In this document: piece by piece, positions 17,599-48,761 of the stretch
How positions within the stretch are numbered: position 1 is the first letter of the stretch
Layout: each line of letters starts with the position of its first letter
The notes under the pieces: generated by a model
Told to the model about the DNA's origin: nothing
What the model saw: only the letters and a program-made list of their open reading frames with translations
Databases searched by the model: none
Assembly: GCA_016432365.1 (NCBI GenBank)
Contig: CP066686.1
Coordinates: forward strand, 793,501 to 857,500
Source of the DNA: Candidatus Woesebacteria bacterium
GTDB lineage: Bacteria; Patescibacteriota; Microgenomatia; UBA8517
Direction of reading: 5' to 3'
Length of the DNA stretch: 64,000 bases
Translations under genes and position numbers: made by a program

Positions 17599-17658
17599 AT
17601 ATCTCCAATAATACTTTGTCTGTATTGAACGCAATCATTAGTTGTTGTAAAGTTAGAT

Positions 17659-19455: not shown

Positions 19456-19492
19456 TAACATTTGACGTCAAAGCGTATAATCACTTCTTAAT

Positions 19493-27608: not shown

Positions 27609-27665
27609 CTACAAACTAGTATTCAATGTTTGAATAGGCTTGTCAAGTACCATTATGTAACAATA

Positions 27666-28542: not shown

Positions 28543-29077
28543 TTTTATACATTTGAATGTCATCCACCATTTTTCCTTTATATAAATTGCCGCCCGGAAG
28601 CATTCCGTATTGCACAAACCCAAAACTTTTATACATGTTTTGGGCTTTTTCGTTTTCTGCAAAAACCTCAAGCGTAACAATTTTTAATTTTGAAAGTTTT
28701 TTGGCTTCGTCTAAAACCAATTTCATCAATAGTTTCCCTAGTCCCTTACCACGGTATTCTTTAGCTAGTGAAATTCCAAAAACTCCGATATGGCTTTTTA
28801 TTCTATTTTTAAGATCTATTGCAGTAACTCCTGCAATCTTACCGTCAACAAAAAGCAACAGTTGAACAGTTTCCTTTTTTCCAATTTTTTCAAGTTGCCC
28901 TTTAAGATATTTTTCTTCATCAGTAATTGTCATTTGCTCGCCTTGCATCATAATGTATGTTTTTTCTTTGGATAACGTATTTATATATTCGCACATCACC
29001 CCAGCATCCCCACTTTTGGGATATCTGACAACAATTTCTTCGCCATTTATAGTTTCATTAAATACTATATGTTCCAT
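28535..29077 (-). CDS. GNAT-family N-acetyltransferase
   Basis: Motif A HIGVFGISLAKEYRGKGLGKLLMKLVLDEAKK; C-terminal FGF/YG. Confidence 0.75.
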   Translation of the reverse strand: MEHIVFNETINGEEIVVRYPKSGDAGVMCEYINTLSKEKTYIMMQGEQMTITDEEKYLKGQLEKIGKKETVQLLLFVDGKIAGVTAIDLKNRIKSHIGVFGISLAKEYRGKGLGKLLMKLVLDEAKKLSKLKIVTLEVFAENEKAQNMYKSFGFVQYGMLPGGNLYKGKMVDDIQMYKNV

Positions 29078-29124
29078 GGAACGATTTTATCATTTATCAC
29101 ACAGATGGCCAAGCTCTGCTTATC

Positions 29125-29724
29125 ATGTCAGATGGTATAATTCTTATTATGTATACCGAATTTGAGGCGACATTTACAAACATTGATAAAGACGACACAA
29201 GAAATCGTCTTAAAAATGCGGGGGCAAAATTGATCCGTCCTGAGTTTATGCAAAAACGAGTAGTTTTTAATCTGCCAAAAGGTCACGAAATCCCAGGCGG
29301 CTGGCTTAGAGTCCGCGACGAAGGGGATAAAATCACAATGAGTTTAAAAATAGTTAACGGAGGCAAAATTGACGACCAAAAAGAAACACAATTAACGGTT
29401 AACAGTTTTGACGAAGCAGCAACAATTTTGGAAACAATAGGTTGCGACAAAAAAGCCTATCAAGAAAGTAAACGCGAACTTTGGGAGTTGGATGGGGTGG
29501 AAATTACAATTGATGAATGGCCATTTTTGGAGCCGATTGTAGAAGTTGAAGGAAAATCCGAAGAGGAAGTTAAAAATGTTTCGGAAAAGCTTAATTTTGA
29601 TTATAAAAATGCAAGGTTTTGCGCGGTGGACGTTTTATATAGTGAAAAATATGGAATAAGCCAAGATAGAATAAACAATCACACCCCCGAAATTTTATTT
29701 GACGGGGAAAACCCTTTTACTTAA
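29125..29724 (+). CDS. CYTH-domain (triphosphate tunnel metalloenzyme) protein
   Basis: N-terminal YTEFEATF (ExExK-like start), then RVRDEGDKITMSLK and a C-terminal EIE-like segment (VEITIDEW..EPIVEVEG). Confidence 0.55.
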   Translation: MSDGIILIMYTEFEATFTNIDKDDTRNRLKNAGAKLIRPEFMQKRVVFNLPKGHEIPGGWLRVRDEGDKITMSLKIVNGGKIDDQKETQLTVNSFDEAATILETIGCDKKAYQESKRELWELDGVEITIDEWPFLEPIVEVEGKSEEEVKNVSEKLNFDYKNARFCAVDVLYSEKYGISQDRINNHTPEILFDGENPFT

Positions 29725-30229
29725 AATGAACGACTTCAAAACATACACAGATTACAAGACAGTCCTTTCCGTAAACGCCTTAATTTTTTCCGAAGGCAAA
29801 ATTTTAATGCTTAAAAGAGCGGATGACAAAAAAATTGATCCCGGACTTTATTCCGGGATTGGCGGAAAAGTAGAACCTCACGAAAGTTTTTATAATGCAA
29901 TTCTTCGTGAAATCAAGGAAGAAACAGGTTTGACAGAATTTAAATCAATAAAACCTTATTCGGTTACTCAAATCCCGTACCCACCCACGGACTCTGAATG
30001 GGTAAATGTCTATTTTATTGTCCATATTACGAAACAGGTTGAATTAGAACCAACTGAGGACGGTACATTTCATTGGGTAGGCATCGAAGAAGCCTTAAAA
30101 CTACCAACACCGAACGATGTCCACGATTACCTGGAGATTCTTTCTAAAGACCCCAACGCCTTCATTTTTGGTTTTTATGACCACGACAAGGAAGGAAACC
30201 TAACAAACAAAAAAATTAAAGTTGTCTAA
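29699..30229 (+). CDS. NUDIX hydrolase
   Basis: Nudix box GIGGKVEPHESFYNAILREIKEETGL. Confidence 0.7.
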   Translation: MTGKTLLLKMNDFKTYTDYKTVLSVNALIFSEGKILMLKRADDKKIDPGLYSGIGGKVEPHESFYNAILREIKEETGLTEFKSIKPYSVTQIPYPPTDSEWVNVYFIVHITKQVELEPTEDGTFHWVGIEEALKLPTPNDVHDYLEILSKDPNAFIFGFYDHDKEGNLTNKKIKVV

Positions 30230-31431
30230 AAAGAACTTGTTAAATTGTAAATCGGAAGAATAACAGCAATAACTAAAAATCCAACCCCAAGCCCTAGCAT
30301 TATCATAACCAATGGTTCTATTGCAGCTGTCAAGCCTTTTACCTTCTCGTCGCTTTCCATTTCAAAAATGTGGCTGATTTTGGTTAAAACATCGTCCATT
30401 TTTCCCGTTTCTTCACCCACCGCAATCATCTGAGAAAGTAAAAAGGGGAAAGCCTCGGGGTGCCTTGCAAAGGAAAAGGCGATAGGGAAACCCTTCTCCA
30501 CCTGTCTGGAAACATCTTTTAATGCATCGGAGATGACACTATTTGATACAACTTCACTTGTAATGTTCAAGGCCTCAAGAATTGGAACACCGGCCCCCAC
30601 CATTAAAGACAGGGTTCTTGTAAGTTCTGTCAAAATTACTTGTTTTTGCAGGTTCCCGAAAATAGGAATTTTAAAAACCATTTCATCGACTTTTTTCTTT
30701 CCCATTGCGGTGCTCCTGTAAAGTGTAAACAAATAGTAACCAACACCTCCGATTGCTAAAATGACAAACCAGTAATTAACAAAAAAACCGGAAATTCCCA
30801 TTAAAATTCGCGTAGGTAAGGGGAGTGTGGCATTAAAATCACCATAAAGCGAAGTCAGTTTGGGAATAACAAAAATCATCATTATAAAAACAACTACAAC
30901 CATACCTACCCCGATTATCGCAGGGTAAATTAAAGCCCCTTTAACTTTACCGTTAAATTCTTGCTGCTTTTCCAGGGTATCTGCCAATCTAAGAAGCACG
31001 GCATCCATAACACCCCCGACCTCACCCGATTTAACCAAGGATAAATAAGTTCTGGTAAAAATTTTGGGGTGTTTATTCATGGCACTCGAAAGAGATTCTC
31101 CGGCTTCAACATCCGCCAAAATCTGGGCAACAACTTTTTGCATAGCCCCATTGCTTTGAGATCTAAGTATTAGAAGTGCTTCCGTGATGGGTAGCCCGGC
31201 TCCGATCATTGTTGAAAGCTGACGGGTGAAAGTTGAAATGTCCCCTGTTGTTATCCGTTCTTTGAATTTCTTTACAATCGAAAATGGTGAATCCATTTTC
31301 TCGGAAATAGAAATAACATAAAAGCCCTTGCCCCGAACCAGTTTTGCCGCATGGCTCGTGTCACTCGCCTCGACTTCTCCTGACACCAATCTTCCTTGTC
31401 TGTCTTTGGCCTTGTAATTAAATCTTTTCAT
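30226..31431 (-). CDS. pilC: type IV pilus inner-membrane platform protein PilC (GspF family)
   Basis: Duplicated GspF domains and three TM helices. Downstream of pilB and pilT. Confidence 0.8.
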   Translation of the reverse strand: MKRFNYKAKDRQGRLVSGEVEASDTSHAAKLVRGKGFYVISISEKMDSPFSIVKKFKERITTGDISTFTRQLSTMIGAGLPITEALLILRSQSNGAMQKVVAQILADVEAGESLSSAMNKHPKIFTRTYLSLVKSGEVGGVMDAVLLRLADTLEKQQEFNGKVKGALIYPAIIGVGMVVVVFIMMIFVIPKLTSLYGDFNATLPLPTRILMGISGFFVNYWFVILAIGGVGYYLFTLYRSTAMGKKKVDEMVFKIPIFGNLQKQVILTELTRTLSLMVGAGVPILEALNITSEVVSNSVISDALKDVSRQVEKGFPIAFSFARHPEAFPFLLSQMIAVGEETGKMDDVLTKISHIFEMESDEKVKGLTAAIEPLVMIMLGLGVGFLVIAVILPIYNLTSSF

Positions 31432-31443
31432 GCAGAAGTTTTT

Positions 31444-32502
31444 TTAAACACCTCGTACTAAACGCGCAAGCTCTTCGGGTCTTAACGACCAACTCTGGGC
31501 AACTTCCATAGTTACCAGACCACGTTTTACAAGATCTGCCAGGGAACGCTCAAGAGTGCTCATTCCGGCTTCCTGTGAAGTTTCCAAAATGCTTTCGATC
31601 TGGTGAGTTTTACCTTCACGGATAGAAGTTTTTATAGCTGTGGTCCCCAACATTATCTCGTAAGTAACAACCCTGCCTTTGGTTGTAGAAGGGATTAGTC
31701 TTTGGGAAAAAACCGCCTCAATTACATTTGATAGCTGAAGCTTTACCTGCCCCTGCTGTTCTTCAGGGAAAACATCGACGATTCTGTCGATTGTTTGGGC
31801 GGCACTATTTGTATGAAGAGTAGCAAAAACCAAATGGCCTGTTTCTGCAACTGTTAATGCAGCTGCAATTGTTTCGTAATCACGCATCTCTCCAACCAAA
31901 ACCACATCCGGATCTTCTCTCAGTGCGGACCTTAAAGCTATTTCCCACGAATGTGTATCTGTTTGCATCTCGCGTTGAGAAATGACCGATTTAATCGGCT
32001 TAAAAATAAACTCAATCGGGTCTTCGATGGTTACGATGTGAGATGTGCGGGTTTCGTTAATTTCATCTATCATTGCCGCAAGGGTAGTTGATTTTCCATG
32101 CCCTGTTGGCCCGGTCACAAGAACCAACCCCTGCCTTAACGTCGTAAAAGAATGAAGAATTTTAGGTAGTCCCAAAGCATCTATTTTTGGAATTGTCAAA
32201 GGAATCTGTCTAAAAGCAACTGCTGTAGTGTTTTTCTGGGTATAGGCATTGGCTCTAAACCTGGCCTTATCGGAGAATGGTAAAGAAAAATCAAGTTCCT
32301 TGTTCACGGTTAACCTTTCGATTTGTTCGCTTGTAAGAACTTGTTTAAGAAGTTCGTTGATAGAATCCGGTGTAGAAATACCGGCTCCGGGCGCACTTAA
32401 CAATTCCCCATCCACCCTTAGAGTAGGGGGGACTCCGGCAACCAAATGCAAATCACTGGCTTTCAAGTCAATTGTTTGTTGTAATAATTGTTTGATGTCC
32501 AT
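31444..32502 (-). CDS. pilT: twitching-motility retraction ATPase PilT
   Basis: Walker A GPTGHGKSTT, Asp box, and AIRNLIRE-like TSIREGKTHQI. Length 352 aa. Confidence 0.8.
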   Translation of the reverse strand: MDIKQLLQQTIDLKASDLHLVAGVPPTLRVDGELLSAPGAGISTPDSINELLKQVLTSEQIERLTVNKELDFSLPFSDKARFRANAYTQKNTTAVAFRQIPLTIPKIDALGLPKILHSFTTLRQGLVLVTGPTGHGKSTTLAAMIDEINETRTSHIVTIEDPIEFIFKPIKSVISQREMQTDTHSWEIALRSALREDPDVVLVGEMRDYETIAAALTVAETGHLVFATLHTNSAAQTIDRIVDVFPEEQQGQVKLQLSNVIEAVFSQRLIPSTTKGRVVTYEIMLGTTAIKTSIREGKTHQIESILETSQEAGMSTLERSLADLVKRGLVTMEVAQSWSLRPEELARLVRGV

Positions 32503-32513
32503 AGTTAAACAGT

Positions 32514-32600
32514 CAAAAGGTAAAAGTTAAAAGGTAAAAGTTTCAGAAATTTTTGAATTTTGATTTGTAATTTTGAATTTTGCATTTTGAATTTTGAATT
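32514..32600. repeat. tandem repeats: 2x14-nt AAAAGGTAAAAGTT, then ~7 copies of heptamer TTTGAAT
   Basis: Read directly from the pilB-pilT intergenic sequence. Confidence 0.7.
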
Positions 32601-34344
32601 ACTCTTGTGCAACTCTCAGTATCTCTTCCACTGTAGTGATTCCTTCAGCAACCTTCAAGTACCCATCCTGTTTAAGTGATACCATTCCTGCCTCTCTCGC
32701 TGCATTGTCTATATCTCCGGCCGAGGCCCGTTCCAAAATAAGTTTACCAATTTTTTCTGTTACCGTGATAGTCTCAAAAATACCCATTCTTCCCAAATAA
32801 CCCGAGTTTCCGCAATCCGGGTCCCCCTTACCTCTATAAAGTTTGACCTCTCCCTGTGGCTGCCAAAGACTACCCAATTCTTTCTTCATCTCGCTTACAA
32901 TTTTAGGGTCTGGAACATAACTTTCTTTACAATCGTCATGGATTTTTCTGACAACTCTTTGGGCAACAAGACAGGTAATAGAGGAGGCCAATAAGTACGG
33001 TTCCGCGCCCATGTCTAAAAGCCTGGGTAGTGCACCTGAAGCATCATTTGTATGAAGTGTAGAAAATACCAAATGTCCGGTTAACGAAGCCTGAATGGCA
33101 AGATCCGCAGTTTCGCTGTCGCGGATTTCTCCTACAAGAATAATGTTTGGGTCCTGTCTAAGAAATGATTTCAATCCGTCGGCAAATGTGAGCCCAACAG
33201 CAGTGTTGATTTGGACCTGATTGACGCCGGGGATTTTGTATTCGATCGGGTCTTCCAATGTAACTATGTTGACTTTTGGAGTATTTAGTCTGGATAAAAC
33301 AGAATACAAAGTGGTCGTCTTTCCGGAACCCGTTGGTCCACAAATTAAAATAATTCCATGCGGACGCAAAATTGCATCCTGAAGATCTTTAAGACTTTTA
33401 CCCCTAAGGCCCAATTCCTGAAGCGTAGGGACTCCCCCGGATTTTTTGAGTAAACGCATCACAATTTTTTCTCCCCAAGTTGTGGGCAGAGAAGAGATAC
33501 GAAGGTCTACTTCTTCCTCACTACCTTTAAAGTTGAATCTACCGTCCTGGGGAACTCTTTTTTCGTCAATTTTCATCCCTCCCAAAATTTTGATTCTGCT
33601 TATTAATGAATCGTGCAGTTCCTGCGGAATTGTGAGCTTCTCCTGTAAAATTCCGTCAATTCGATAGCGAACTCGGGTTGACTTTTCTTCGGGCTCAATG
33701 TGAACATCGCTGGCCCTTGATTTAATAGCAAAGTCGAGTATTTGGGATACAATTTCTGCTATTTTTTCTTCTCTTATAAATCCGCCTCTGGAAACTTCGG
33801 CAGCTTTAATTCCTTCTCCTTTTCCTCCGGGTGTAACTTCTTTCATTGCAGCCGTAACCTGTTTGGTTAATGAGGTTGTATAGCGGGTTTGAATAAAATC
33901 GTCCACTTTCATGGGCTCCGCCGCGTAAGTTTTTACATGGAGACCTGTTTTTTGTTCGATAAATTCTATAGCCGCAAGATCCAGAGGATCAGCCATGGCA
34001 AGGCCCAAACTTTTTTCTTTTTTATCGTAATTAACAGGGAAAACTCTAAATCTTTCTGCGACCTCCGAGGGGAGTGCTGCTAAGGCATTGGGGTCAATCG
34101 GAGCAGTGTTTAAATCAACATATGGGATGTTATAGAGTTGGGCTTTAGCTTGAACAAGTTTATCTTCAGGAACCATCGAGGCCTCTTTAATAATGTCTTC
34201 CTGTGTTTTACCGCTTTGAATTTCGGTGAACTTTACCTGTTCGGCACGCCGTGCATCGAGTGCCCCCAAAGTCACTAAAATATCAGCAAGAGTTCCGGTG
34301 GAGTTTAAACTATTAGTACCGTTTACAGGTTGAGCAGTGGGCAT
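32599..34344 (-). CDS. pilB: type IV pilus assembly ATPase PilB (GspE family)
   Basis: N1/N2 domains and Walker A GPTGSGKTTTLY. No tetracysteine motif found. Length 581 aa. Confidence 0.85.
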   Translation of the reverse strand: MPTAQPVNGTNSLNSTGTLADILVTLGALDARRAEQVKFTEIQSGKTQEDIIKEASMVPEDKLVQAKAQLYNIPYVDLNTAPIDPNALAALPSEVAERFRVFPVNYDKKEKSLGLAMADPLDLAAIEFIEQKTGLHVKTYAAEPMKVDDFIQTRYTTSLTKQVTAAMKEVTPGGKGEGIKAAEVSRGGFIREEKIAEIVSQILDFAIKSRASDVHIEPEEKSTRVRYRIDGILQEKLTIPQELHDSLISRIKILGGMKIDEKRVPQDGRFNFKGSEEEVDLRISSLPTTWGEKIVMRLLKKSGGVPTLQELGLRGKSLKDLQDAILRPHGIILICGPTGSGKTTTLYSVLSRLNTPKVNIVTLEDPIEYKIPGVNQVQINTAVGLTFADGLKSFLRQDPNIILVGEIRDSETADLAIQASLTGHLVFSTLHTNDASGALPRLLDMGAEPYLLASSITCLVAQRVVRKIHDDCKESYVPDPKIVSEMKKELGSLWQPQGEVKLYRGKGDPDCGNSGYLGRMGIFETITVTEKIGKLILERASAGDIDNAAREAGMVSLKQDGYLKVAEGITTVEEILRVAQE

Positions 34345-34463: not shown

Positions 34464-36999
<2,536 letters not shown>

Positions 37000-37728: not shown

Positions 37729-38205
37729 ATGGATTTTAAAGCGTTCATCGAAATTCCACTAAACTCAAACATTAAATATGAAGTGGATGAAGAAACAGGG
37801 GAGCTTACAGTGGATCGATTTCTCCATACAGCGATGAGTTATCCTTTTAATTATGGTTATGTTAAAGAAACAAAGGGGAAAGACGGCGACCCGCTTGATG
37901 TTTGCATTTTTTCCTCTCTTCCGGTCACCCCCGGGGTGGTTATGAAATGCCATGCTATCGGCCTTTTGGAAATGGAAGATGAAGGGGGAATAGATACAAA
38001 AATCTTTGCAGTTCCGGATAAAAAAATTGATCCGATATTCGGAGTTTGGACAAGTGTCAAAGATGTCCCGGAAGTAGTTCTAGCCAGAACCAGACACTTT
38101 TTCGAACATATGAAAGAGCTGGAACCGGGGAAATGGGTAAAGACGGGCGAATTTAAAGACGCCTCGGAAGCAGAAAAAGAAATTGAGGCTTCCAAAAATA
38201 AATAG
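37729..38205 (+). CDS. ppa: inorganic pyrophosphatase (family I)
   Basis: EIPLNSNIKYEVD, YPFNYGYV and DGDPLDVCI. Confidence 0.8.
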   Translation: MDFKAFIEIPLNSNIKYEVDEETGELTVDRFLHTAMSYPFNYGYVKETKGKDGDPLDVCIFSSLPVTPGVVMKCHAIGLLEMEDEGGIDTKIFAVPDKKIDPIFGVWTSVKDVPEVVLARTRHFFEHMKELEPGKWVKTGEFKDASEAEKEIEASKNK

Positions 38206-38989
38206 CATTTCTATGCCGAAAATTTTATTGTCTTTGTCGTTGTTTGTTTTACTTCTTGTCGTTTTTTCCTCGCCCGTTTCCGCAAATCACACTTGGAATG
38301 GATATCATTGGGCCCGAACCTCAAATCCATTTGCTTTAAAACTTGGAGATAATGTTACTTCAGGTTGGGACACATATTTGGCCACAGCTTCTTCTGATTG
38401 GACCACATCCGACGTCCTCGATACAGCGATTGTTGCCGGACAAGGCGGCAGAACCTGTAAGGCAACCAACGGAAGAGTTGAGGTCTGCAACAAAAAATAT
38501 GGAAACAACGGCTGGCTGGGAATTGCCCAAATATGGATTACCGGCGGGGTACATATAACTCAAGGAGTAACTAAAATGAATGATACCTATTTCGGTAAGC
38601 CTGCGTACAACACACCAGCCTGGAAACAAATGGTGATGTGTCAGGAAGTGGGGCATACTTTGGGCCTTGATCATCAAGATGAAATTTTTGACAATGCCAA
38701 CCTTGGAACCTGTATGGATTATACGAGCGATCCAAGTACAAACCAGCATCCCAATCAGCATGACTACGATGAGCTGAATACTATATATAGTCACCTTGAC
38801 AGTTTTACTACGATTGGTCAGACGACAGGACAGGTGGCCAGACAGCTTGGGCAACTCGCAGCAAACCAAGATCTTGATAATCCAGGAGAGTGGGGCAGGT
38901 CAATACGTGACAACGGCAAGATTGCCGTATTTGAACGCAACCTTGGCTTGGGAAACAAAGTCTTCACATTTGTAATTTGGGCCAAGTGA
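38183..38989 (+). CDS. secreted metzincin-like protein with a QExxHxxGxxH variant motif
   Basis: Signal peptide. VMCQEVGHTLGLDHQDE matches the metzincin HExxHxxGxxH motif except that the first His is Gln. Confidence 0.35.
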   Translation: MRLPKINSISMPKILLSLSLFVLLLVVFSSPVSANHTWNGYHWARTSNPFALKLGDNVTSGWDTYLATASSDWTTSDVLDTAIVAGQGGRTCKATNGRVEVCNKKYGNNGWLGIAQIWITGGVHITQGVTKMNDTYFGKPAYNTPAWKQMVMCQEVGHTLGLDHQDEIFDNANLGTCMDYTSDPSTNQHPNQHDYDELNTIYSHLDSFTTIGQTTGQVARQLGQLAANQDLDNPGEWGRSIRDNGKIAVFERNLGLGNKVFTFVIWAK

Positions 38990-39008: not shown

Positions 39009-39659
39009 TTGCAATGGTATACTAAATTGATGCTTAAAATTGTCTCCTGGTTATTAATAATTTTAGGACTCGCCTTGCTAATTTTTATTTTTGGACCCGT
39101 TATTAAAGAGGAAATTAAATACAGCTTTGATCAGATGTCTCGTGTTAAATACGTCATAGGCACTGAACAATTGGATACTTTTGAAAAACCGCTCACTCCA
39201 CCAAACACAGATTTCTCTGTAATTATCCCCAAAATAGGTGCCGTGGCTGCAATTTCCGAAAACATAGATCCCAAAGACTCGAGTACTTACCTACCGGCTC
39301 TCAAAAACGGACTAGTACAGGCCACAGGGTCGGCCAACCCGGATAACGATGGAAATATCTACCTTTTCGCTCATTCGGCCGACACTTTTTGGCATGTTAA
39401 TACTTACAACACTAAGTTCCTTTTGATAGATAAATTAGCCCTGGATGACGAAATTGATATTTTTTACAAAGGTAGACTAATAAAATATACCGTTTTCAGC
39501 AAAAAAATCATAGAAACGCAGGCTGCAGTATTTACGGGTAGCCTTGACCCGGACTTAAACCCCTCCGGCTTTATAAAAACACTCACCATTGAGACCGGCT
39601 ACCCGGCCGGGACGACTTTCAAAAAACTCATAGTTACGGCATGGCAGGTGAATCCTTGA
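39009..39659 (+). CDS. sortase-fold homolog lacking the catalytic Cys and Arg (pseudo-sortase)
   Basis: N-terminal TM anchor. GNIYLFAHS retains the His, but TLTIETG replaces the TLxTC Cys motif. Aligns with the true sortase at 44751. Confidence 0.4.
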   Translation: MQWYTKLMLKIVSWLLIILGLALLIFIFGPVIKEEIKYSFDQMSRVKYVIGTEQLDTFEKPLTPPNTDFSVIIPKIGAVAAISENIDPKDSSTYLPALKNGLVQATGSANPDNDGNIYLFAHSADTFWHVNTYNTKFLLIDKLALDDEIDIFYKGRLIKYTVFSKKIIETQAAVFTGSLDPDLNPSGFIKTLTIETGYPAGTTFKKLIVTAWQVNP

Positions 39660-39708
39660 CATCCCAATAACTGATAGTATAATCTCAAATTGTCCAACCT
39701 AAATTCGC

Positions 39709-42700
39709 GTGAAAAACAAACTTTTTAGAAAAATAATCTCGGTATTCGCAACTTTTGCGCTTCTTTTTAATTCTGTTGCACCTTATTCGCTTGCAGTCGC
39801 GCAAGAAATAACCCCAAGCCCAACACCCGATGCAACCACTCAACCGACAGAGCAGCCAACGATTGCACCCACAGACACCGTTTCACCAACAGCCACACCA
39901 GATGCAACACCAACAGAAATAGCCAGTCCAACACCAGAGGTAACAGCAACACCTACCGATTTAGCAACACCGACACCTTCCGAAACCCCAGCCGAAACCC
40001 AAGCACCGGAAAGCAGCCCCACAGTTCAAGGACCACCCTCAGATGAAAATAAACAAATAAACGAATCTGCAAATCTACAAATTTCCACACCAACTGCAAC
40101 GCCTGTAGTGCCAGTTGAACATGGAAACATTACAACCACCACAATAGAAAATGTCGATCTTTCGGGCATAACATTACTTAACTCAAATTTAAACGGGGCA
40201 TCTGTTACAACAGATAAACCAGATTATTCACCCACAAGCATTGTTCTTATTACCGGCACGGGTTTTACAGCAGATAAAACATATACTATAGTGATATCCT
40301 CAACCGACGAGCCTCCGGTAACCCATATAGATAGTGTAACCGCCGACACCCAAGGAACTTTTAGTTACGCCTACCAGCTCGATGGCAACTACCGACCGGA
40401 TTATAAAATTGAAGTAAAGAGTGGGGAAGTGGTGGTAGCATCAACAAGTTTTACTGACAATGGGGCAAAAATTGACAAACTCTATAAAAACGCTGGTCTT
40501 TTAACCGAGGGTTATCAATTTGCTGTCAATGAAACTGTATATGCAAAAGCGACCAATTTAACCACAAGTCGTGGTTATAAATTTGAAGCAAAAAATTCTT
40601 CAGGGGTATCAATGTACCTGGGTGCATGTAAAACAGGTTCAACAACTGCTAGCGACTCTTTTACTCCTACAACCGTGTCAGGAAGTTCAAGTTGGACTTG
40701 GATTCTACATGAATGGTCGTCAAACACTTGTTCAAGCGGTCCACAAAGCGAAGATTCTGACAACACACTCGCATTCAACGTAGCACAAGCTACCGCCTAT
40801 ACAACATCGGGGTTGTCTACCACCACAACATCTTACCTAACCGGTGCAACGGCGTATGTCAAAATAAATGGTCTACATCAAAACGATAACGATTGGGATG
40901 TTACCTGGATTAAACCAGACGGTACTACTGCCTGTGCAAATACAAGTAGTGGTGATCGTCCAAACTCTTCCAGCAATGGGGTCCTCCCTGATTCGTCTCC
41001 TTCGTATTTAGAATACCAACCAAGTACAGGTAGTAATAACTGGAACGATCCAACAAAGTATGACGGTTCTTGTCCGGCTTTTACCAGTGGAAATACAGGT
41101 CTTTGGAAATTAATCGTATCCCAAGACTCAACACACACAGTTACTTTTTCCGTATTTTCTGTAGCAACACCTTTAGATACCACACCACCCAACACAACCA
41201 TTGACTCCGGACCAAGTGAAAATGTACCAAGTACCTCAGCAACATTTGCATTTAGCGCTAACGAAACATCGACTTTTGAATGTAAATTGGATGGCGCATC
41301 ATTTTCAACTTGTACATCAACAAAATCATATTCAAGTCTTTCTCAAGGGTCCCATACATTCCAAGTTAGAGCTACCGACACGGCAGGGAATGTCGACTCT
41401 ACACCTGCAAGTCAAACTTGGACAGTTGATACGGTTGCTCCAACAATTTCAGCAGCAGTAAGTGCAGGGACACTTGGTTCAAATGGTTGGTACACAAGCG
41501 ATGTTACGGTTCATTTCACCTGCGCTGATACAGGAGGGTCCGGAATTGCATCTTGTCCGACAGATCAAATTTTAAGTACAGAAGGAAGCTCTGTAAGCTC
41601 AACTGCTCAAACAGCCACAGATAATGCGGGTAACACCAGCGCATTAAGCAACGTTGTTACTGTAAAAATCGATAAAACAGGTCCTACTGCTACCCTTGTA
41701 GTTACAGCTGGGGACTTGGGCCTAAACGATTGGTACACAAGCGATGTTACGGTCGCTACAAGTTGTTTTGATGGAATTAGTGCCATTACCGCATACACAT
41801 CTGATCAATCTCAAACAACCGACACGGCAGGACAAACTTTCAACGGATGGTGTGAAAACTGGGCAGGCTTAACTACAAACGCCTCACCATTAACTATCAA
41901 ATTGGATAAAACATCCCCAACTGCAACATTCAGTTATTCAACAACATCACCTACAAACAGTGATGTTCTTGCCACCCTAGTTCCAAGTGAGACGGTCACG
42001 GTTACCAACAATGGAGGACTTTCGACATATAATTTTACATCGAACGATTCTTTTACTTTTGAATTTAGAGATGAGGCCGGTAACATCGGAACTGCAACCG
42101 CAACTGTAGACAATATAGATAAAACTGCCCCAACTGTTACATATACCGACCCAACACCGGCAAACGGAACTCTTACAAACATCAATAACCACACATTTAA
42201 AGTTTCTTTAAGTGAAGAAGTTTCCAGCTGTAAATTAATCGCCGAAAATGGAGATTTCGAAAATGGCCTAAACGGATGGACAACTGGGGGCAACACAGCC
42301 CTAACTACCAGTACTTACCACTCTTCAAACCATAGTTTACAACTCCAAACAACAAACGATAATGTGGGAGGTAGTTATAACTACGCATTTACTACAGCAA
42401 ATCTTCCTGGAAGTGGTTTGATCAATTTAAATGCATGGCTAAGCCGTTCAACCACTGACGGACCTTATTGGGATCAACAGAGAATTTATTTAACCGATCT
42501 TTCAGGAAATATGTTGGTTGATTTGTTATATGGCCTTGAAAATTCAAGTTGGACGAATGTGAATTATGATATTTCTGCATACGCCGGACAATCCGTAAGG
42601 GCCTATTTTGCAGTACACGATGACGGGGCCGGCGACCCTTCCAGAATGTTTGTTGACGACGTTTCAATTACCGGTGGTTTCCAAGGCGGTGAGCACCCAA

Positions 42701-43935
42701 TGGTTGTCGATGGATTAGAAGCTACTTTAGATTGGAACGATATGCCTGATGCAAATTACAATCATTATGTCCAATGTACAGATTTGGCAGGAAACAATGG
42801 AAATTCAGAAAATAGGACATTAACCATTGATACTCAAGCGCCAGTTCTTTCCGACAAAACAGCATTTGACGATTCCTGGTACACAAGCGACCAAACATCG
42901 AATTTTGATTATTCAGATGTAAACGGTATTGCCTCGGGCAACCCCGCCAGTTGTGTAATTTCCACAGAAGGCTCTGCTCAAACTTGTGAGGTTATTGACC
43001 CCAATGTTTGTGACAATGCCGGAAATTGTAACCACGACACGGTTACATCTAATGGCGTAAATATCGACAAATCCGGTCCAACTTTGTCAGCCGATCCGCC
43101 GGCTGGCAACTACAGCTCTACTCAATTCGTTACCTTAACCGGAAGTGATGCTGGAAGTGGAGTAAAAGACATTTATTACACAATTGACGGTTCAACACCC
43201 GATGAAACAAAAACTCTTTACACGAGCGGGTCAACAATAACAGTAGATGACGATATGACCATTAAGGCAATTGCGTATGACAATATTGGTAATGCGAGTG
43301 ACGTATTGGTAGCTACCTATGGAATGGCGCCTGTTATATCAGCTGAGGATGGTATGGGTTCGGGTCATACATCCGCGAGAATTACGTGGACAACTGATAG
43401 GCCGGCAACTTCGAGAGTTGTTTACGACACAGTAAGTCATCCAGCTCTGGATAGCGAACCCAATTACGGATACGCCTTTTCAACAGGGACTTTTGATACA
43501 GATCCAAAAGTGCTGGCTCACTCAATCTCAATTGACGGACTTTCTGCAGGGACAACTTATTACTACAGAACAATCTCAACCGGTTCGCCGGCAGCTATTG
43601 GAGCTGAACACTCACTTTCTACACTTACATACTCAGGACCACCCAGCGCAGGTGGTAACAGTGGAACAGTTCTTGGAATCTCCACAACACAAGCTGACAG
43701 TTCATGGCCCAAGCTGGCCTTTGCAGGAACAACGGATTCTAACGGTTCAACCGAGAATGTTCTTGGAACCGAAACAACAGCCGGTACACCCTCCGCCGAC
43801 TCAACCATACAGACGGAACAAGATGAAAAAGTAAACTTTATGAAGTGGATATTGAGTCACAAGAAGATTTCCCTGGGAGTTGTCCTAGTCCTAATCGCTG
43901 TTGGTTATTACATATCTAAAAGGAAAAATAAGTAA
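39709..43935 (+). CDS. giant cell-surface protein (1408 aa) with a signal peptide, Thr/Pro linker and C-terminal TM anchor
   Basis: Signal peptide, a PTPxATP-type linker (residues ~35-110), many Ser/Thr-rich beta domains with repeated DKTxPT / WYTSD units, and a C-terminal TM segment plus KRKNK. Confidence 0.55.
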   Translation: MKNKLFRKIISVFATFALLFNSVAPYSLAVAQEITPSPTPDATTQPTEQPTIAPTDTVSPTATPDATPTEIASPTPEVTATPTDLATPTPSETPAETQAPESSPTVQGPPSDENKQINESANLQISTPTATPVVPVEHGNITTTTIENVDLSGITLLNSNLNGASVTTDKPDYSPTSIVLITGTGFTADKTYTIVISSTDEPPVTHIDSVTADTQGTFSYAYQLDGNYRPDYKIEVKSGEVVVASTSFTDNGAKIDKLYKNAGLLTEGYQFAVNETVYAKATNLTTSRGYKFEAKNSSGVSMYLGACKTGSTTASDSFTPTTVSGSSSWTWILHEWSSNTCSSGPQSEDSDNTLAFNVAQATAYTTSGLSTTTTSYLTGATAYVKINGLHQNDNDWDVTWIKPDGTTACANTSSGDRPNSSSNGVLPDSSPSYLEYQPSTGSNNWNDPTKYDGSCPAFTSGNTGLWKLIVSQDSTHTVTFSVFSVATPLDTTPPNTTIDSGPSENVPSTSATFAFSANETSTFECKLDGASFSTCTSTKSYSSLSQGSHTFQVRATDTAGNVDSTPASQTWTVDTVAPTISAAVSAGTLGSNGWYTSDVTVHFTCADTGGSGIASCPTDQILSTEGSSVSSTAQTATDNAGNTSALSNVVTVKIDKTGPTATLVVTAGDLGLNDWYTSDVTVATSCFDGISAITAYTSDQSQTTDTAGQTFNGWCENWAGLTTNASPLTIKLDKTSPTATFSYSTTSPTNSDVLATLVPSETVTVTNNGGLSTYNFTSNDSFTFEFRDEAGNIGTATATVDNIDKTAPTVTYTDPTPANGTLTNINNHTFKVSLSEEVSSCKLIAENGDFENGLNGWTTGGNTALTTSTYHSSNHSLQLQTTNDNVGGSYNYAFTTANLPGSGLINLNAWLSRSTTDGPYWDQQRIYLTDLSGNMLVDLLYGLENSSWTNVNYDISAYAGQSVRAYFAVHDDGAGDPSRMFVDDVSITGGFQGGEHPMVVDGLEATLDWNDMPDANYNHYVQCTDLAGNNGNSENRTLTIDTQAPVLSDKTAFDDSWYTSDQTSNFDYSDVNGIASGNPASCVISTEGSAQTCEVIDPNVCDNAGNCNHDTVTSNGVNIDKSGPTLSADPPAGNYSSTQFVTLTGSDAGSGVKDIYYTIDGSTPDETKTLYTSGSTITVDDDMTIKAIAYDNIGNASDVLVATYGMAPVISAEDGMGSGHTSARITWTTDRPATSRVVYDTVSHPALDSEPNYGYAFSTGTFDTDPKVLAHSISIDGLSAGTTYYYRTISTGSPAAIGAEHSLSTLTYSGPPSAGGNSGTVLGISTTQADSSWPKLAFAGTTDSNGSTENVLGTETTAGTPSADSTIQTEQDEKVNFMKWILSHKKISLGVVLVLIAVGYYISKRKNK

Positions 43936-43999
43936 CCTATAACTTTGCCTCTTGACAAGCAGGGAAAGTACTGTTATTATTCCACCATAGTTATATATT

Positions 44000-44812
44000 A
44001 TGACTAAATTTAATTCAGGCAAAGCTTCGGTTTTAGCGCTTACGTCTGTTTTCGTCGTCGCGACTTTTCTCCTTGGTAAATCCCTGACTTCTGTTTTTGC
44101 CAGGGCTGGTGATGTTCCAAAAGCGTACTGCCATGCAGCTGGGCGTGAGGAAACTGATCACTTTAATTATCATTACAATCGGGCTTGGACATCTCACTTT
44201 TATAATAACGGAACACCGAAAGCAGGTCACGAAGACGATTTCTACACAGTAGTAGGGGACAGAAATTGTGACGGTCAAGCAGACTCAAGCCCTACGCCGA
44301 CACCTACACCTACGCCGACAGCAACTCCTAGAGAATGCGAAGAAGATGAGGATGAGTGCAGTACACCTACACCAGAACCGACAGCAACCCCGGAAATAAC
44401 TGACGCTTGTCCAAATATTGAAGGTATTCAAGACTCCATACCGGAAGGATATTTCCTAAACAGTGATGATAACTGTGTCGAGGGAGAAGAACCCACACCA
44501 ACTCCAGACGCTGATGTCTGTGACAACCTTGATGGTGTTCAAACGGGATTACCAGAAGGAATGCATTTTGATGCCGCAGGTGTAAATTGTGTAAATTTTG
44601 GTCAAAGTGGGCCAGCACCCAGGAACGACGAAGGAACAGGTGGGCAGGTATTGGGAGCCTCCACTGTAAGAGGCCAAGTATTGGGCGCTTCCACAATGGC
44701 AAAAACAGGTAGTTTTGAAGAAAGCCTTTATATAGCTATAATGGGTGTAGGTGCAATCATTACTACGCTCGGTGCGAAAAATCTCAAGAAAGCTTTCAAA
44801 GCGGCTAACTAA
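44000..44812 (+). CDS. surface protein with Cys-containing repeats and a C-terminal sortase-type sorting signal (MAKTG-like)
   Basis: Signal peptide, TPTPTP linkers and repeated C-x-N-x-x-G-[IV]-Q modules. C-terminus is MAKTGS + hydrophobic stretch + KNLKK. Overlaps the downstream sortase gene. Confidence 0.45.
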   Translation: MTKFNSGKASVLALTSVFVVATFLLGKSLTSVFARAGDVPKAYCHAAGREETDHFNYHYNRAWTSHFYNNGTPKAGHEDDFYTVVGDRNCDGQADSSPTPTPTPTPTATPRECEEDEDECSTPTPEPTATPEITDACPNIEGIQDSIPEGYFLNSDDNCVEGEEPTPTPDADVCDNLDGVQTGLPEGMHFDAAGVNCVNFGQSGPAPRNDEGTGGQVLGASTVRGQVLGASTMAKTGSFEESLYIAIMGVGAIITTLGAKNLKKAFKAAN

Positions 44813-45356
44813 ACTTCAAGTTAAACTTCAGAGTGGTAAAAACCCAATCATTGTCGTAACCTTCGGCATGTTTCTTATTTTTGTAGGAGCCTCCCATTAC
44901 TATCAACTGCGGATTTTATCGTTTAGGGGGCCTCTTGCCATGGCACAGAACGCACAAAGGGGCGAGTTGCCGGTTCAGATTACTATTCCCTCTATAAAAA
45001 TTGACCAGCCGATCGATGTAGGTACAATCCAAAATGGCGTTTGGCTTATCTCATATGAGCACCCGACTTTTTTAGATACTTCGGCCAGGCCGGGAACAGG
45101 CGGAAATACAGTTATTTATGGTCACAATAAAAAAGTTATTTTTGGAAACCTGCCATATGTAAGTATCGGCCAAAATGTTTTTATCAAGGTTGCGAGTGGG
45201 AAAATATATAAATATGAAATTTATCAGAAAGATTTTGTTAGTCCCGATAGAATAGATTTGGTTTCACCGGAAAATAAAGAGGACTTAACAATCTACACTT
45301 GCTGGGGCTTATTTGATTCACAACGTGCCGTTATAAAGGCAAGGCCTATGTTTTGA
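44751..45356 (+). CDS. sortase (transpeptidase)
   Basis: N-terminal TM anchor, catalytic His in VIYGHN, LTIYTC Cys motif and a downstream Arg (KARP). Confidence 0.65.
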   Translation: MQSLLRSVRKISRKLSKRLTKLQVKLQSGKNPIIVVTFGMFLIFVGASHYYQLRILSFRGPLAMAQNAQRGELPVQITIPSIKIDQPIDVGTIQNGVWLISYEHPTFLDTSARPGTGGNTVIYGHNKKVIFGNLPYVSIGQNVFIKVASGKIYKYEIYQKDFVSPDRIDLVSPENKEDLTIYTCWGLFDSQRAVIKARPMF

Positions 45357-45450
45357 CCTATTATTTCTTCACCCTTGTTCGGATGCTCCTTGTAAGTTAA
45401 AATGACACCCGAGAAGCTGGCTAGCTCATTTAACACAAGGAGAAAACCGA

Positions 45451-45942
45451 ATGAAAAAGATCGTTTTTGTCGTACTTACCGTGTTGGCTCTGGTTTTAAT
45501 GCCAACCACCTCCGCCTTCGCAAGCGGCGGATTCAATGAATTCGGCTACAACTACAACGCCCACATCTTCGTTGGCTCGGCCGATGGAGTTGATCGTGTG
45601 TTGGACGGCGCTGTTTGGGGCGACCCGACTTATGCCAACGACCATCTGGTCATGAAGTGGAACGCTGCCTGGGACGCATGCAACGATAACGGATATGATG
45701 ATCCGGCTTTCTGCGCAGGCGCCTGGACCACAAACGAATACAACGGCATGAATCCTGATGGAAGCCAAAGCAGTTGGCATTACAAGATCATCTGGGTCGG
45801 CTCGTTGGGGTCCGCGAGTCCTTACTGGCGCGACGGCGGTTATTCCGTTTGGGGAAATTACGAAGTCATTCAAGACTTCGGTTTTGACCCTACCGGCCAT
45901 TACCGCTTTGCCCTGGCCCGCCCTGCAGGCCTCGGACACTAA
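45451..45942 (+). CDS. small secreted Trp/Tyr/Gly-rich protein in a locally GC-rich gene (probable horizontal acquisition)
   Basis: Signal peptide MKKIVFVVLTVLALVLMPTTSAFA. Strong AAGGAG Shine-Dalgarno site. GC content and codon usage (GGC, GCC, CTG) differ clearly from flanking genes. Confidence 0.6.
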   Translation: MKKIVFVVLTVLALVLMPTTSAFASGGFNEFGYNYNAHIFVGSADGVDRVLDGAVWGDPTYANDHLVMKWNAAWDACNDNGYDDPAFCAGAWTTNEYNGMNPDGSQSSWHYKIIWVGSLGSASPYWRDGGYSVWGNYEVIQDFGFDPTGHYRFALARPAGLGH

Positions 45943-46133
45943 ATAACTATAAAAACAGAGATTTGACGGCCTAAAGCCATCGAATAATGCTAGCCAGCTC
46001 CTCTGTTTTTTTTGTTTTAGTATCTCCCCATTGCTTCATAAATATTGTTGAGGTAGAATCATTTAAGGCTAATTGAGCCTGTTTTTTATGTTCGTAATTA
46101 TTAATTCTTAGTTATTAATTCTTAATTTAGCTT

Positions 46134-48761
46134 ATGGATATCGGTAAAATTCAACAAACAGAGATAACCAGCGAACTTTCTAAATCATATTTGGATTATG
46201 CAATGAGCGTTATCGTCGCCCGGGCCTTGCCGGATGTACGGGACGGACTTAAGCCGGTTCACAGGAGAATTTTATATGCAATGCATTTGATGGGACTTCA
46301 TTTCGTGGGTTCTTCCACAACAAAATCCGCCAAGGTCGTTGGAGAAGTTTTAGGAAAATATCATCCACATGGAGACATGGCAGTCTACGACGCGATGGTC
46401 CGACTTGCCCAAACTTTTTCCATGCGTTATCCCTTAGTCCACGGTCAGGGAAACTTTGGATCCGTTGACGGCGATCCTCCCGCAGCCATGCGTTACACCG
46501 AGGTTAAACTCGCAAAAATAGCAGACATGATGCTTGCGGACATGGAAAAAGAAACCGTCGATTTTACGGACAACTTTGATGCAACACTTAAAGAACCTGT
46601 TTTCCTTCCCGCAGTTTTACCCAATTTGCTTCTTATGGGAAGCGAGGGAATTGCGGTGGGAATGGCTACAAAAATTCCCCCTCATAATTTAACTGAATTG
46701 GTTGATGGCATAACCGCTATGATCAAAAAAGGTAAGGTTATAACTGAGCAAAAGGCGCAGGAAGAACAAACCGATTTTGTCATCAAAAAGATTAATTTGG
46801 TAGCTTCGGGTGAGGCCAAAGCATTAACCGAAGAAGAAGTTAACCCAACAGCAGTCTCTTTTGAAAGCGAAATAGATATCGACGAACTAACCAACATTAT
46901 ACCCGGACCTGATTTCCCAACAGGCGGTGCGATTTACGATGCCAACGGACTAAAAGAACTTTACGCTACAGGGCGCGGCAAAATAGTTGTCAGGGGAATT
47001 GCAGAAATTGTAGAGGGTGCTAAAGGCAAGCAGCAAATAATAATCAGCGAGCTTCCATATCAAGTAAATAAGAGTGAACTTGTAGCCAAAATCGCCGAAC
47101 TCGTAAAAGATAAAAAGGTTGTAGGAATTGCAGATCTAAGAGATGAAAGCGACAAAGACGGTATGAGGGTAGCGATAGACCTCAAACGCGATGCAAAACC
47201 AAAATCCGTTTTGAATAATATTTTCAAACACACCAGACTTCAAAGCAGTTTCCCTGCAAATTTTGTGGCACTTGTTGACGGCACCCCCCACACATTAAAT
47301 CTCAAAACAATTCTTGTTGAATACGTTAAACACAGACAAAGAGTTGTTATAAGGCGCACTATTTTTGAATTGACCGAAGCCAAAAAACGCGCTCATATTT
47401 TGGAGGGGCTTAAAATCGCACTAGACAATTTAGATGCAGTAATCAAAACCATCAGAGAAAGTAAGACTCAGGAGGATGCCAAGAAAAACTTAATTGAAAG
47501 GTTTAAGCTGTCCGAAATCCAGGCAACTGCAATCCTTGATATGCAGCTTAGAAGGTTGGCTGCACTTGAGAGAGAAAAGATTGAAAAAGAATATGCTGAA
47601 ATCAAGAAACTGATAGATCAACTTGTTGCAATTTTGAAAGACCCCAAACAGGTTTTGAATATTATTGTTAAAGAGCTGGGAGAGCTAAAAGAAAAATACG
47701 GAGACGAAAGAAGAACCAAAATCTACAAAAACCCGCTAGGGGAAATCAGCGAAGAAGATTTAGTTGCTAAAGAGGAAACGTTAATCACCGTTACAAAAAC
47801 CGGCTATGTTAAACGGCTTTCGGCAACAAGTTACCGCGCGCAGCGTCGGGGTGGTAAGGGTGTAATCGGAATGGCAACAAAGGAGGAGGATGAAATAGAA
47901 CACATTTTATCCGCCACCACTCACGACACGATATTATTCTTTACCAACAAAGGCCGTGTTTTCGGGCTAAAAGCATGGGAAATTCCGGAAAGCAGTAGAC
48001 AGGCAAAGGGACAAGCTCTTGTCAATTTGTTGAATCTTGAACAGGGCGAAGAAATAAAATCTATTCTTCCGCTTTCTAAAGAACTCGGAATCAAAAATTT
48101 GGTAATGGCCACCAAAAACGGACTTATTAAAAAGACCGGCATTGACGAATTTGAAAACTTAAGAGCGTCCGGGCTTATTGCAATTAAACTCAGAGACAAC
48201 GACATGCTTATTTCGGTTCATCCGACAACGGGGGATGACCACATCATTCTTCTTACAAGTAATGCAAAATCAATAAGATTCCCGGAGTCAAATGCCAGAC
48301 CCATGGGCCGTGCCACAACCGGGGTAACGGGAATAAAAATGGATGCAGGAGATGAGTTGATTGGAATGGAAGTGTTCCCGACAAAAGAAAATATCCCAAC
48401 CGATAAAAGGAAAAAATTCTACCGCGACATTTTGACTATCGCCGAACACGGACTTGGGAAGCGTACCCCAATCAATCTTTTCCCTGTACAAAAAAGATCA
48501 GGTAAGGGTGTTAAGGCGGCGGTGGTTTCGGCAAAAACAGGGAATCTAAAAACTGCCGCGATGGTCACTGAAAAATTTGATCAGGTGATAATTACTTCAA
48601 AAATGGGGCAGGTGATTAAACTGCCATTGAAAAATATTCCCCAACTTGGAAGAGCTACACAAGGAGTAATACTTATGCGTTTTGCAGATAAAGCAGATTC
48701 GGTTGCGGCTGCTGCGGTTTTAGAAAAAGGAGTGGATGACGAAGAAGAAGAGGAGGGTTAA
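46134..48761 (+). CDS. gyrA: DNA gyrase subunit A
   Basis: [24 protein letters not shown], active-site Tyr region (AMRYTE), and a beta-pinwheel C-terminal domain ending in an acidic tail. Confidence 0.9.

Follow-up and report, generated by a model that had tools for sequence, protein, structure and literature searches.

A gyrB-gyrA surface island of two sortase modules in Candidatus Woesebacteria: an apparently intact [M/L]AxTG cassette and a probable pseudo-sortase

We analysed a 64-kb window of a Candidatus Woesebacteria contig, the window being the whole stretch of DNA considered here, and compared the surface-protein genes lying between its gyrB and gyrA with related loci, labelled L001 and so on. 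Sortases are the standard route by which monoderm bacteria fasten proteins to the cell wall, and they are widely used as tools. We think it probable that this interval represents a conserved Woesebacteria surface island of two sortase modules. Module B appears intact and pairs a 270-amino-acid (aa) protein with an active-type sortase (sortase 2) whose gene overlaps its own. Module A appears degenerate and holds a giant surface protein together with a sortase homologue (sortase 1, or the pseudo-sortase) that has lost its catalytic residues and is seemingly kept by selection. The four open reading frames (ORFs) that an earlier note on this DNA had picked out were each found in place (Table 1).

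That sortase 1 is a non-catalytic sortase homologue, as the earlier note predicted, is borne out by its fold, its codons and the family alignment. The protein matches Pfam Sortase (PF04203; MEROPS C60) at 40 bits (gathering score 26.6, E 3.8e-10), and an AlphaFold2 model built on an alignment of 23 sequences has a long N-terminal helix followed by a beta-barrel (predicted local distance difference test, pLDDT, 84.6). When this model was compared with the Protein Data Bank (PDB) by Foldseek, the best 50 matches listed were all sortases, of classes C, D, E and F (probability 1.00, template-modelling scores 0.53-0.68), which excludes an unrelated fold. A PDB sequence search gave nothing meaningful, so that profile and predicted structure were required. 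His122 is kept (FAHS; 39372-39374). In the family alignment, 75 homologues carry the cysteine of TLxTC and an arginine where sortase 1 has Gly197 (39597-39599; GGC against TGY) and Lys206 (39624-39626; AAA against AGA), and the protein is devoid of cysteine throughout. Because both residues are gone, sortase 1 is predicted to be incapable of transpeptidase action. It thus belongs to the sortase superfamily by fold and profile but is a non-active homologue, as it fails the His-Cys-Arg triad that is universal and required in sortases (PMC8225981). The likely true start is ATG 39030, as orthologues begin MLK(I/V)(I/V)SW. No NCBIfam class model was reached (class E scored 17.2 against a cut-off of 160, and class D 14.8 against 165). 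The two sortases of the island had also been aligned block by block; their relatedness holds at the level of family profile and fold, and the pairwise block identity does not, direct BLASTP being near chance (E 0.013, 22% over 65 aa). A sequencing error as the source of the Cys-to-Gly change was ruled out, the same state being present in a 99%-identical protein (P0001, on two other contigs) and in 18 other distinct sequences.

Loss of the nucleophile recurs across the family. We found 63 homologues of sortase 1, whose named sources are all Woesebacteria or Patescibacteria, and most keep TLQTCYPPGTTxKRL. Among 60 full-length homologues, 13 are Cys-less (Gly in 11, Asp in 2). Metagenome loci raise the number of distinct Cys-less sequences to 19, all intact ORFs, in clades down to 50% mutual identity. 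Neighbour-joining trees place the Cys-less members in at least three clades plus two singletons, with Gly and Asp mixed within clades; the Cys-less form appears to have arisen about five times. The genomic context differs with the state of this residue. When the count is limited to loci with a complete downstream region or gene, an LPx[T/S/A]G protein lies 3' of a Cys-bearing sortase 1 in 13 of 14 loci (L081 is the exception), and an LPxTG giant is adjacent in none of nine Cys-less loci (the window, L001, L003, L004, L007, L055/57, L059, L075/105 and L086; Fisher p = 1.2e-5 for the LPx[T/S/A]G giant, kinship ignored). In L075, L105 and L086, the giant and its companion gene are gone and the dead sortase stands directly 5' of module B. 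Module B accompanies Cys-less sortase 1 in 4/4 loci and the Cys-bearing form in about 6/15, too few loci for an association.

The Cys-less genes nevertheless carry a signature of constraint. Between the window and L001, both Cys-less, the ratio of nonsynonymous to synonymous substitution rates (dN/dS) for sortase 1 is 0.17 at a dS of about 1.1, similar to that of the neighbouring holB (0.13) and zincin gene (0.12), with gyrB at 0.011; the corresponding amino acid identities are 72%, 83%, 82% and 99%. Of 61 columns counted as family-invariant (conservation of 90% or more among Cys-bearing members), Cys-less members match the consensus at a mean of 87%, with His in 95% and Arg in 89%, and their losses concentrate by the His (HST motif, T124) and in the TLxTC-YPPGTT segment. 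By Tajima relative-rate comparisons, Cys-less lineages have changed 2-3 times as much as the Cys-bearing relatives nearest to them (40 unique changes in the window against 12 in L051, p = 1e-4; 36 in L001 against 14 in L051, p = 0.002; 23 in L075 against 8 in L065, p = 0.007), and Cys-Cys control pairs were symmetric. Because dN/dS is low, most invariant columns are retained and the Cys-less ORFs are intact, the dead sortase looks less like a dying pseudogene than like a pseudoenzyme that is under purifying selection and has relaxed constraint near its former active site.

Alternatively, the Cys-less sortase may be a functionless relic, decaying neutrally after the signal of its substrate was lost. 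Such decay would account for the faster evolution of Cys-less lineages, for the divergence of sortase 1 between two genomes whose gyrB proteins are nearly identical, for the alternation of Gly and Asp at the former Cys site, for the loss of the His segment as well in one member (P0046), and for the partner substrate being adjacent in 0/9 cases. It fits poorly with a dN/dS of 0.17 between two Cys-less genes, with ORFs that stay intact across such divergent clades, with the retention of most family-invariant residues, and with the presence of the gene even where the giant has been cleanly deleted (L075, L086, L105). We therefore regard a neutral relic as unlikely and favour a selected pseudoenzyme.

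The giant gene downstream of the pseudo-sortase is chimeric. The signal peptide, Thr/Pro linker and C-terminal transmembrane (TM) helix plus KRKNK described earlier for its product were all confirmed, and a domain search on the protein gave immunoglobulin (Ig)/FN3-like matches (CHB_HEX_C_1/Fn3_assoc at residues 1130-1204, FN3-like at 1220-1293, and a partial Big_13). Residues 1-250 (39709-40458), comprising the signal peptide, Thr/Pro linker and first Ig-like domain, correspond to the conserved N-terminal module of LPxTG giants and are 42-59% identical to the N-termini of five relatives' giants and 32-37% identical to those of two others. The middle is unique Ig/FN3-like sequence. Residues ~1333-1408 (43705-43932) consist of KWILSHKKISLG, the TM helix and KRKNK, and share 38-48% identity with five companion tails, the companions being a family of about 300 aa that follows the giant in relatives. 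Just before this segment, VLGIST (43669-43686) leads into TQADSSWPKLAFAG; at this point relatives read ELPxTGSPTAFLALALG. Neither LPxTG nor [ML]AxTG precedes the C-terminal TM helix, and LPxTG is absent from all frames; a frame-shifted remnant of LPxTG plus TM helix was looked for at the 3' end of the gene and none was found. The idea that the giant is itself a sortase substrate thus does not hold, as it lacks both motifs and bears the tail anchor of the ~300-aa companion. Because the LPxTG signal is lost and a companion-type anchor stands in its place, the giant would be tail-anchored in the membrane rather than covalently linked to the wall. Anchoring by sortase 2 was ruled out as well, the tail having no xTG motif.

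Relatives show what an intact module A looks like. The recurring order of the island is gyrB, pyrophosphatase, sometimes a secreted protease, sortase 1, giant, ~300-aa protein, in some loci an [M/L]AxTG protein of ~250 aa together with sortase 2, and gyrA. The giants of relatives measure 1.4-2.4 thousand aa, carry SpaA, CLIPPER or VWA domains, and end in VLG(I/A/L)STELPxTGS, a TM helix and a basic tail; the LPGTG tail of the giant in L006 scores 15.6 against the TIGR01167 cut-off of 15.9. In most loci the companion gene overlaps the giant gene by 14 nucleotides (nt), and its product ends in VLGTEAT...(K/R)WI(L/M)THKK(I/M)SLG, a TM helix and a basic tail and has no pentapeptide. Closest among the intact islands is L051, a contig of Woesebacteria GW2011_GWB1_39_10. 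There, pyrophosphatase and zincin genes are followed by a sortase 1 that bears the Cys and is 63% identical, an LPATG giant of 2050 aa, a companion of 299 aa with a KWILTHKKISLG tail, a 247-aa MAGTG protein and sortase 2; the last two genes overlap by 59 nt, and gyrA lies ~0.9 kb downstream. The same island logic holds in L005, L006 and L009. The dead sortase is thus not the extra paralog it had been taken for: it is the positional orthologue of the Cys-bearing sortase that precedes a VLGxSTELPxTGS giant in L051, L005, L006, L009 and others. In L001, the closest relative (gyrB protein 99% identical), the slot of the giant is filled by a glycosyltransferase cluster (10730-20630) that includes a 1531-aa protein with multiple glycosyltransferase domains. 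The surface module seems to have been swapped wholesale between near-identical backbones, those of the window and L001.

Module B begins with the 270-aa protein, which is 100% identical to the protein HYV90_04640 of a Candidatus Woesebacteria metagenome-assembled genome; this places the source organism in the Microgenomates group of the CPR (candidate phyla radiation)/Patescibacteria. By inspection it has the layout of a sorting-signal protein, with an N-terminal signal or anchor, MAKTG, LYIAIMGVGAIITTLGA and KNLKKAFKAAN. The reading of MAKTGS, TM helix and basic tail as a sorting signal gains weight from strong conservation: the ending (Q)VLGAST-[M/L]A-x-TG-[S/T/A]F-x-E-x-x-Y-x-AIM..G......G.K..KKA is shared by about 65 of 75 homologues, and the tail is kept although their N-terminal parts vary in length (190-470 aa) and domain content. 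Pentapeptide variants among the homologues are LAxTG, YAxTG, MGKTG and MAxAG, and more distant relatives have VLG-LAATG or VLGATG. Searched alone against 1.84 billion proteins, the 52-aa tail retrieves 123 cluster representatives, nearly all matched at their extreme C-terminus. Curated models do not see it; no Pfam or NCBIfam match, including TIGR01167, was found on the tail even at E <= 10. The motif is less unusual than had been claimed, being a close variant of the known LAxTG signal of class E type.

Several further features of these proteins may be recorded here. The Cys-bounded repeats of the 270-aa protein (Table 1) and an N-terminal motif, CHAAG...H..H...GHEDD (44120-44280), recur in orthologues (L005, L006), and neither matches a Pfam family. 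In L003, a 374-aa repeat protein (13884-15008) encoded ~5 kb 3' of a sortase 1 with Gly terminates with VLG-LSFTG-SG, a TM helix and KKKK, LSFTG being a further pentapeptide variant within the VLG frame. Some public metagenome-assembled genome records with a Microgenomates-type sortase cassette are titled 'uncultured Gammaproteobacteria' or 'Pseudomonadales' (L011, L012, L017, L019, L022, L024, L026) and look mislabelled.

The second gene of the module encodes what had been read as a true sortase, a reading upheld by a complete triad and a Pfam match (73.4 bits, E 1.7e-20). His125 in YGHN (45117-45128), Cys184 in YTCW (45294-45305) and Arg192 in QRAV (45321-45332) align to solved sortases, and TIGR01076 scores 40.0 bits against a cut-off of 39.35. 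By profile, triad and N-terminal membrane anchor, sortase 2 thus belongs to the superfamily. Against the NCBIfam class models, it scores 40.7 of 160 (class C), 39.6 of 165 (D), 34.4 of 158 (GN), 31.8 of 166 (F) and 25 of 160 (E). As neither enzyme reaches a cut-off for classes A-F or GN, both sortases of the island are best described, from their profiles, as unclassified sortases of CPR type. Sortase 2 lies just 5' of gyrA in many Woesebacteria (the window, 44751-48761; L006, L075, L086, L105), and srtA adjoins gyrA in Streptococcus suis (PMC8225981), a parallel linkage in very distant monoderms.

The pairing of enzyme and substrate is supported by gene arrangement. We scanned species-representative genomes with the sortase-2 alignment and inspected the 17 closest loci. 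In 16 of these, the gene directly 5' of sortase 2 ends in an [M/L]AxTG-type tail and reaches 14-137 nt (in most cases 50-68 nt) into the longest sortase ORF, which makes the overlapping sortase a probable dedicated partner of the 270-aa protein, as had been proposed. Substrate and sortase 2 also overlap in L006, L051, L053, L066, L086 and L105. In the window the overlap is 62 nt (the earlier note said 60). The only in-frame starts ahead of the sortase-2 TM helix are GTG 44751 (62-nt overlap) and GTG 44772 (41 nt), and the overlap is real because both fall inside the substrate gene. Module B loci with the overlap are spread over Woesebacteria, other Microgenomates, Curtissbacteria and Saccharibacteria, so that the suggestion of a lineage-specific system does not hold. 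Only one AKTG-type tail occurs in the window, and looking for other AKTG tails genome-wide does not apply to a cassette of one enzyme and one substrate.

It could be argued instead that the MAKTG tail is merely a conserved C-terminal membrane anchor and that the adjacent sortase serves proteins encoded in other parts of the genome. In favour of this, the tail goes unrecognised by library models (TIGR01167, Pfam), some orthologues have MAxAG and thus lack the scissile Thr, and position 1 is Met where Leu is canonical. We give this idea little credence, because [ML]AxTG stands at a fixed distance before the TM helix and basic tail in about 65 of 75 homologues whatever their N-terminal domains, LAxTG versions occur within the family and VLG-LAATG in distant relatives, the overlap with a sortase gene recurs across several CPR classes, and the giants bear, within the same VLGxST frame, a plain LPxTG as their sister signal.

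The two-module island would then work as follows. Characterised sortases cleave a sorting signal and transfer the protein to a peptidoglycan precursor. In module B (44000-45356), sortase 2 would cleave after the Thr of MAKTG and transfer the 270-aa protein to such a precursor; because the sortase gene starts ~60 nt inside the substrate gene, the two may be expressed as one unit. A test peptide that we propose for sortase 2 is aminobenzoyl (Abz)-GASTMAKTGSFE-dinitrophenyl (Dnp). Module A (39009-43935) would be the degenerate remnant of a second sortase-substrate pair. In its ancestral type, a Cys-bearing sortase 1 and an LPxTG adhesin would be followed by the ~300-aa companion, held in the membrane by its KWILTHKK tail anchor. 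Here, sortase 1 would have lost its Cys and Arg, and the giant its LPxTG signal, gaining a companion-type KWILxHKK tail anchor. As for what the pseudo-sortase does, our best guess is a membrane protein without catalytic action that continues to bind sorting or anchor segments at C-termini, or a partner of sortase 2. More broadly, and tentatively, since we would put the chance somewhat below even, the recurrently evolved pseudo-sortases of Woesebacteria may have been exapted, after losing their LPxTG client, to receive or regulate C-terminal sorting or anchor segments without catalysis, for example by holding back tail-anchored adhesins or by tuning the [M/L]AxTG sortase next to them.

Several observations weigh against this account of the island. 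Cleavage at MAKT|G, the acceptor, and the split in specificity, with LPxTG for sortase 1 and [ML]AxTG for sortase 2, are deduced only from adjacency and motif conservation. The association of the Cys with an LPxTG giant ignores the shared ancestry of the loci. L081 has a Cys-bearing sortase 1, yet its giant (2607 aa; 11190-19013) ends in a plain TM anchor with no LPxTG; L008 has an Asp variant and still has a giant, the C-terminus of which runs off the contig. The dS between the window and L001 is near saturation, making the dN/dS values approximate. The 64 kb of genome covered leave room for further sortases or substrates elsewhere. Finally, no module B was seen by the pseudo-sortase in L001, L003 or L004 (L001 was read only to the inserted glycosyltransferase cluster), and because of this a role tied to module B would not be general.

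The idea that the Gly/Lys protein is still an enzyme, acting on the giant or on a tail-anchored segment through another nucleophile or mechanism (for example, hydrolysis via its His), strikes us as highly improbable: conservation does extend to His122, the TLxT motif and most of the barrel, and the gene adjoins a giant surface protein in the window, but the protein has no Cys at all, Gly or Asp are interchangeable at the site, the Arg is lost here too, the relaxed positions are exactly those around the active site, most Cys-less loci have no giant neighbour, and all characterised sortases require Cys and Arg (PMC8225981).

Our findings can be set beside several known systems. LAXTG is the signal of class E sortases (PMC8225981). 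Like the class E systems (Streptomyces SrtE1/E2 with chaplins; Corynebacterium glutamicum SrtE), module B has Ala at position 2 and TG at positions 4-5, followed by a TM helix and basic tail, and its sortase is membrane-anchored with a His/Cys/Arg triad; class E structures from Thermobifida and Streptomyces are also among the best fold matches of the sortase-1 model. Unlike them, sortase 2 falls far short of the class E cut-off, as of every class-specific cut-off, the signal usually has Met at position 1 within a conserved domain of ~45 aa with a VLGAST prefix, and the module is a one-substrate cassette with a gene overlap of ~60 nt in CPR hosts. Pairs of a single sortase and a single substrate are known from some Gram-negative bacteria (Comfort and Clubb 2004, as cited in PMC8225981). 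The class GN pairs of Shewanella and Colwellia (TIGR03784) resemble module B in setting one sortase beside one cognate substrate, a unit conserved across genomes; sortase 2, however, reaches only 34 bits of the 158 required, and motif, host envelope and gene order differ, the substrate gene of module B coming first with an out-of-frame overlap.

Module A, in turn, recalls the LPXTG adhesin and pilus islands of Gram-positive bacteria (class A/C; SpaA/Cna-B/CLIPPER), in that relatives' sortase 1 precedes a SpaA/CLIPPER/VWA giant with LPxTG, a TM helix and a basic tail. It differs in that neither sortase of the window reaches a class-specific model, each island has one LPxTG protein with nothing pointing to pilin polymerisation, and in the window sortase 1 is dead and the adhesin lacks LPxTG. 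A Gram-positive-type pilus operon, considered on account of the SpaA domains in relatives' giants, was rejected for the single LPxTG protein per island and the failure to reach a class C model. A looser likeness is offered by iRhoms, which are inactive rhomboids, pseudoenzymes retained from a protease family. Like them, the pseudo-sortase is a membrane-anchored protein that has lost catalytic residues and kept its fold, with relaxed constraint at the active site and continuing selection; unlike them, it belongs to an unrelated fold and family, and for it a client-binding or regulatory function is only a proposal. CPR sortases have been noted at the level of family presence or annotation and are near-ubiquitous in Microgenomates (PMC6744442; also PMC7143001). 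A full-text literature search of a limited collection found no description of a catalytically dead sortase family and, among the results listed, nothing combining LAXTG with CPR taxa.

The surroundings of the two modules are summarised in Table 1. The gyrB-gyrA interval also contains a minus-strand laccase-like gene, an inorganic pyrophosphatase gene, a zincin-like secreted protein and a 163-aa secreted protein. The zincin-like protease is a conserved upstream neighbour of sortase 1, with an 82%-identical orthologue directly 5' of sortase 1 in L001 (9184-9960) and another in the same place in L051; we treat it as context, its status as a component being unproven. Secreted proteases of other families adjoin sortase 1 elsewhere, namely Peptidase_M10 in L004 (8654-9391), L005 (6670-7437), L066 and L100, and Peptidase_A4 in L008 (1645-2283) and L053. 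None of the proteases adjacent to sortase 1 bears a sorting signal, and the zincin-like neighbour was ruled out as a sortase client for want of a C-terminal signal. The 163-aa protein has no Pfam or NCBIfam match, and its gene looks like a lineage-specific insertion: it is not at this position in the relatives examined, and sortase 2 is directly 5' of gyrA in L006, L075, L086 and L105. The two promoter-like sites in Table 1 are the best two of 22 found in a scanned region of 8.6 kb; the arrangement suggests that the pseudo-sortase is co-transcribed with the upstream pyrophosphatase and zincin genes and that module B has its own promoter.

Beyond the interval, the window encodes a LysM-YkuD L,D-transpeptidase, because of which peptidoglycan is expected in the source organism; this fits the finding that CPR bacteria generally have a peptidoglycan pathway (PMC7143001). 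A type IV pilus gene set lies 5' of holB-gyrB on the minus strand (26188-34344), in the same order in L001, L005, L006 and L009. ORF 26188-26940 may encode a prepilin peptidase. Two adjacent large ORFs, 15520-17598 (692 aa) and 17659-19455 (598 aa), had no Pfam match at E <= 1e-5, and ARAGORN found no tRNA or tmRNA gene anywhere in the 64 kb.

Table 1. Features of the island and its surroundings, in window coordinates (the promoter-like sites and the hairpin come from a consensus scan only)
Feature	Position	Strand	Description
PilC-like gene	30226-31431	-	by synteny with L001
PilT-like gene	31444-32502	-	by synteny with L001
PilB-like gene	32599-34344	-	by synteny with L001
gyrB	35071-36999		
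Zincin-like secreted metalloprotease	38183-38989	+	HExxH; likely start ATG 38213; weak Pfam Met-zincin match
Pseudo-sortase (sortase 1), 216 aa	39009-39659	+	N-terminal TM helix and sortase beta-barrel
Promoter-like perfect TTGACA-16-TATAAT	39656-39683	+	just 5' of giant gene; overlaps pseudo-sortase stop codon
Giant surface protein, 1408 aa, chimeric	39709-43935	+	N-terminal module, unique middle, companion-type tail
Promoter-like site	43952-43980	+	11/12 matches and extended TG; 5' of 270-aa gene
Predicted sortase-2 substrate, 270 aa	44000-44812	+	signal sequence, Cys/His-rich N-terminal domain, Thr/Pro linker, two Cys-bounded repeats
Cys-bounded repeats of substrate, 23-24 aa	44408-44476 and 44519-44590		C(P/D)N(I/L)(E/D)G(I/V)Q..(I/L)PEG........NC
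Substrate tail, QVLGAST	44675-44695		
Substrate tail, MAKTG	44696-44710		
Substrate tail, hydrophobic stretch	44726-44776		
Substrate tail, KNLKKAFKAAN	44777-44809		
Out-of-frame overlap, 62 nt	44751-44812	+	substrate TM end and basic tail against Lys/Arg/Ser-rich cytoplasmic N-terminus of sortase 2
Active-type sortase (sortase 2), 201 aa	44751-45356	+	TM helix 44844-44903 (residues 32-51)
Secreted protein, 163 aa, family unassigned	45451-45942	+	signal peptide; between sortase 2 and gyrA
Terminator-like hairpin	46066-46080		before gyrA
gyrA	46134-48761		

Three things appear to be new here: a CPR-type [M/L]AxTG sorting domain whose dedicated sortase is encoded by an overlapping gene; a recurrent pseudo-sortase kept by selection; and a loss of the nucleophile in that pseudo-sortase that is coupled to loss of the LPxTG signal of its client. 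Their significance is limited in that everything is read from sequences of uncultivated organisms, and we would call the pseudo-sortase a mildly surprising and testable finding for specialists, with its function deduced in the same way. Within those bounds, module B offers a concrete, testable enzyme-substrate pair for CPR bacteria, and profile models of its [M/L]AxTG domain, which current models miss, could be used to annotate the surface proteins of uncultivated episymbionts. In its conserved overlap of ~60 nt, one stretch of DNA encodes both the basic tail of the substrate and the basic N-terminus of the enzyme. Module A may be viewed as an experiment of nature: time and again a sortase loses its nucleophile, and its client the signal, yet the sortase persists. 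If the dead form does have a binding or regulatory role, it would represent a new functional class in a well-studied family and the first pseudoenzyme branch of the sortase superfamily.

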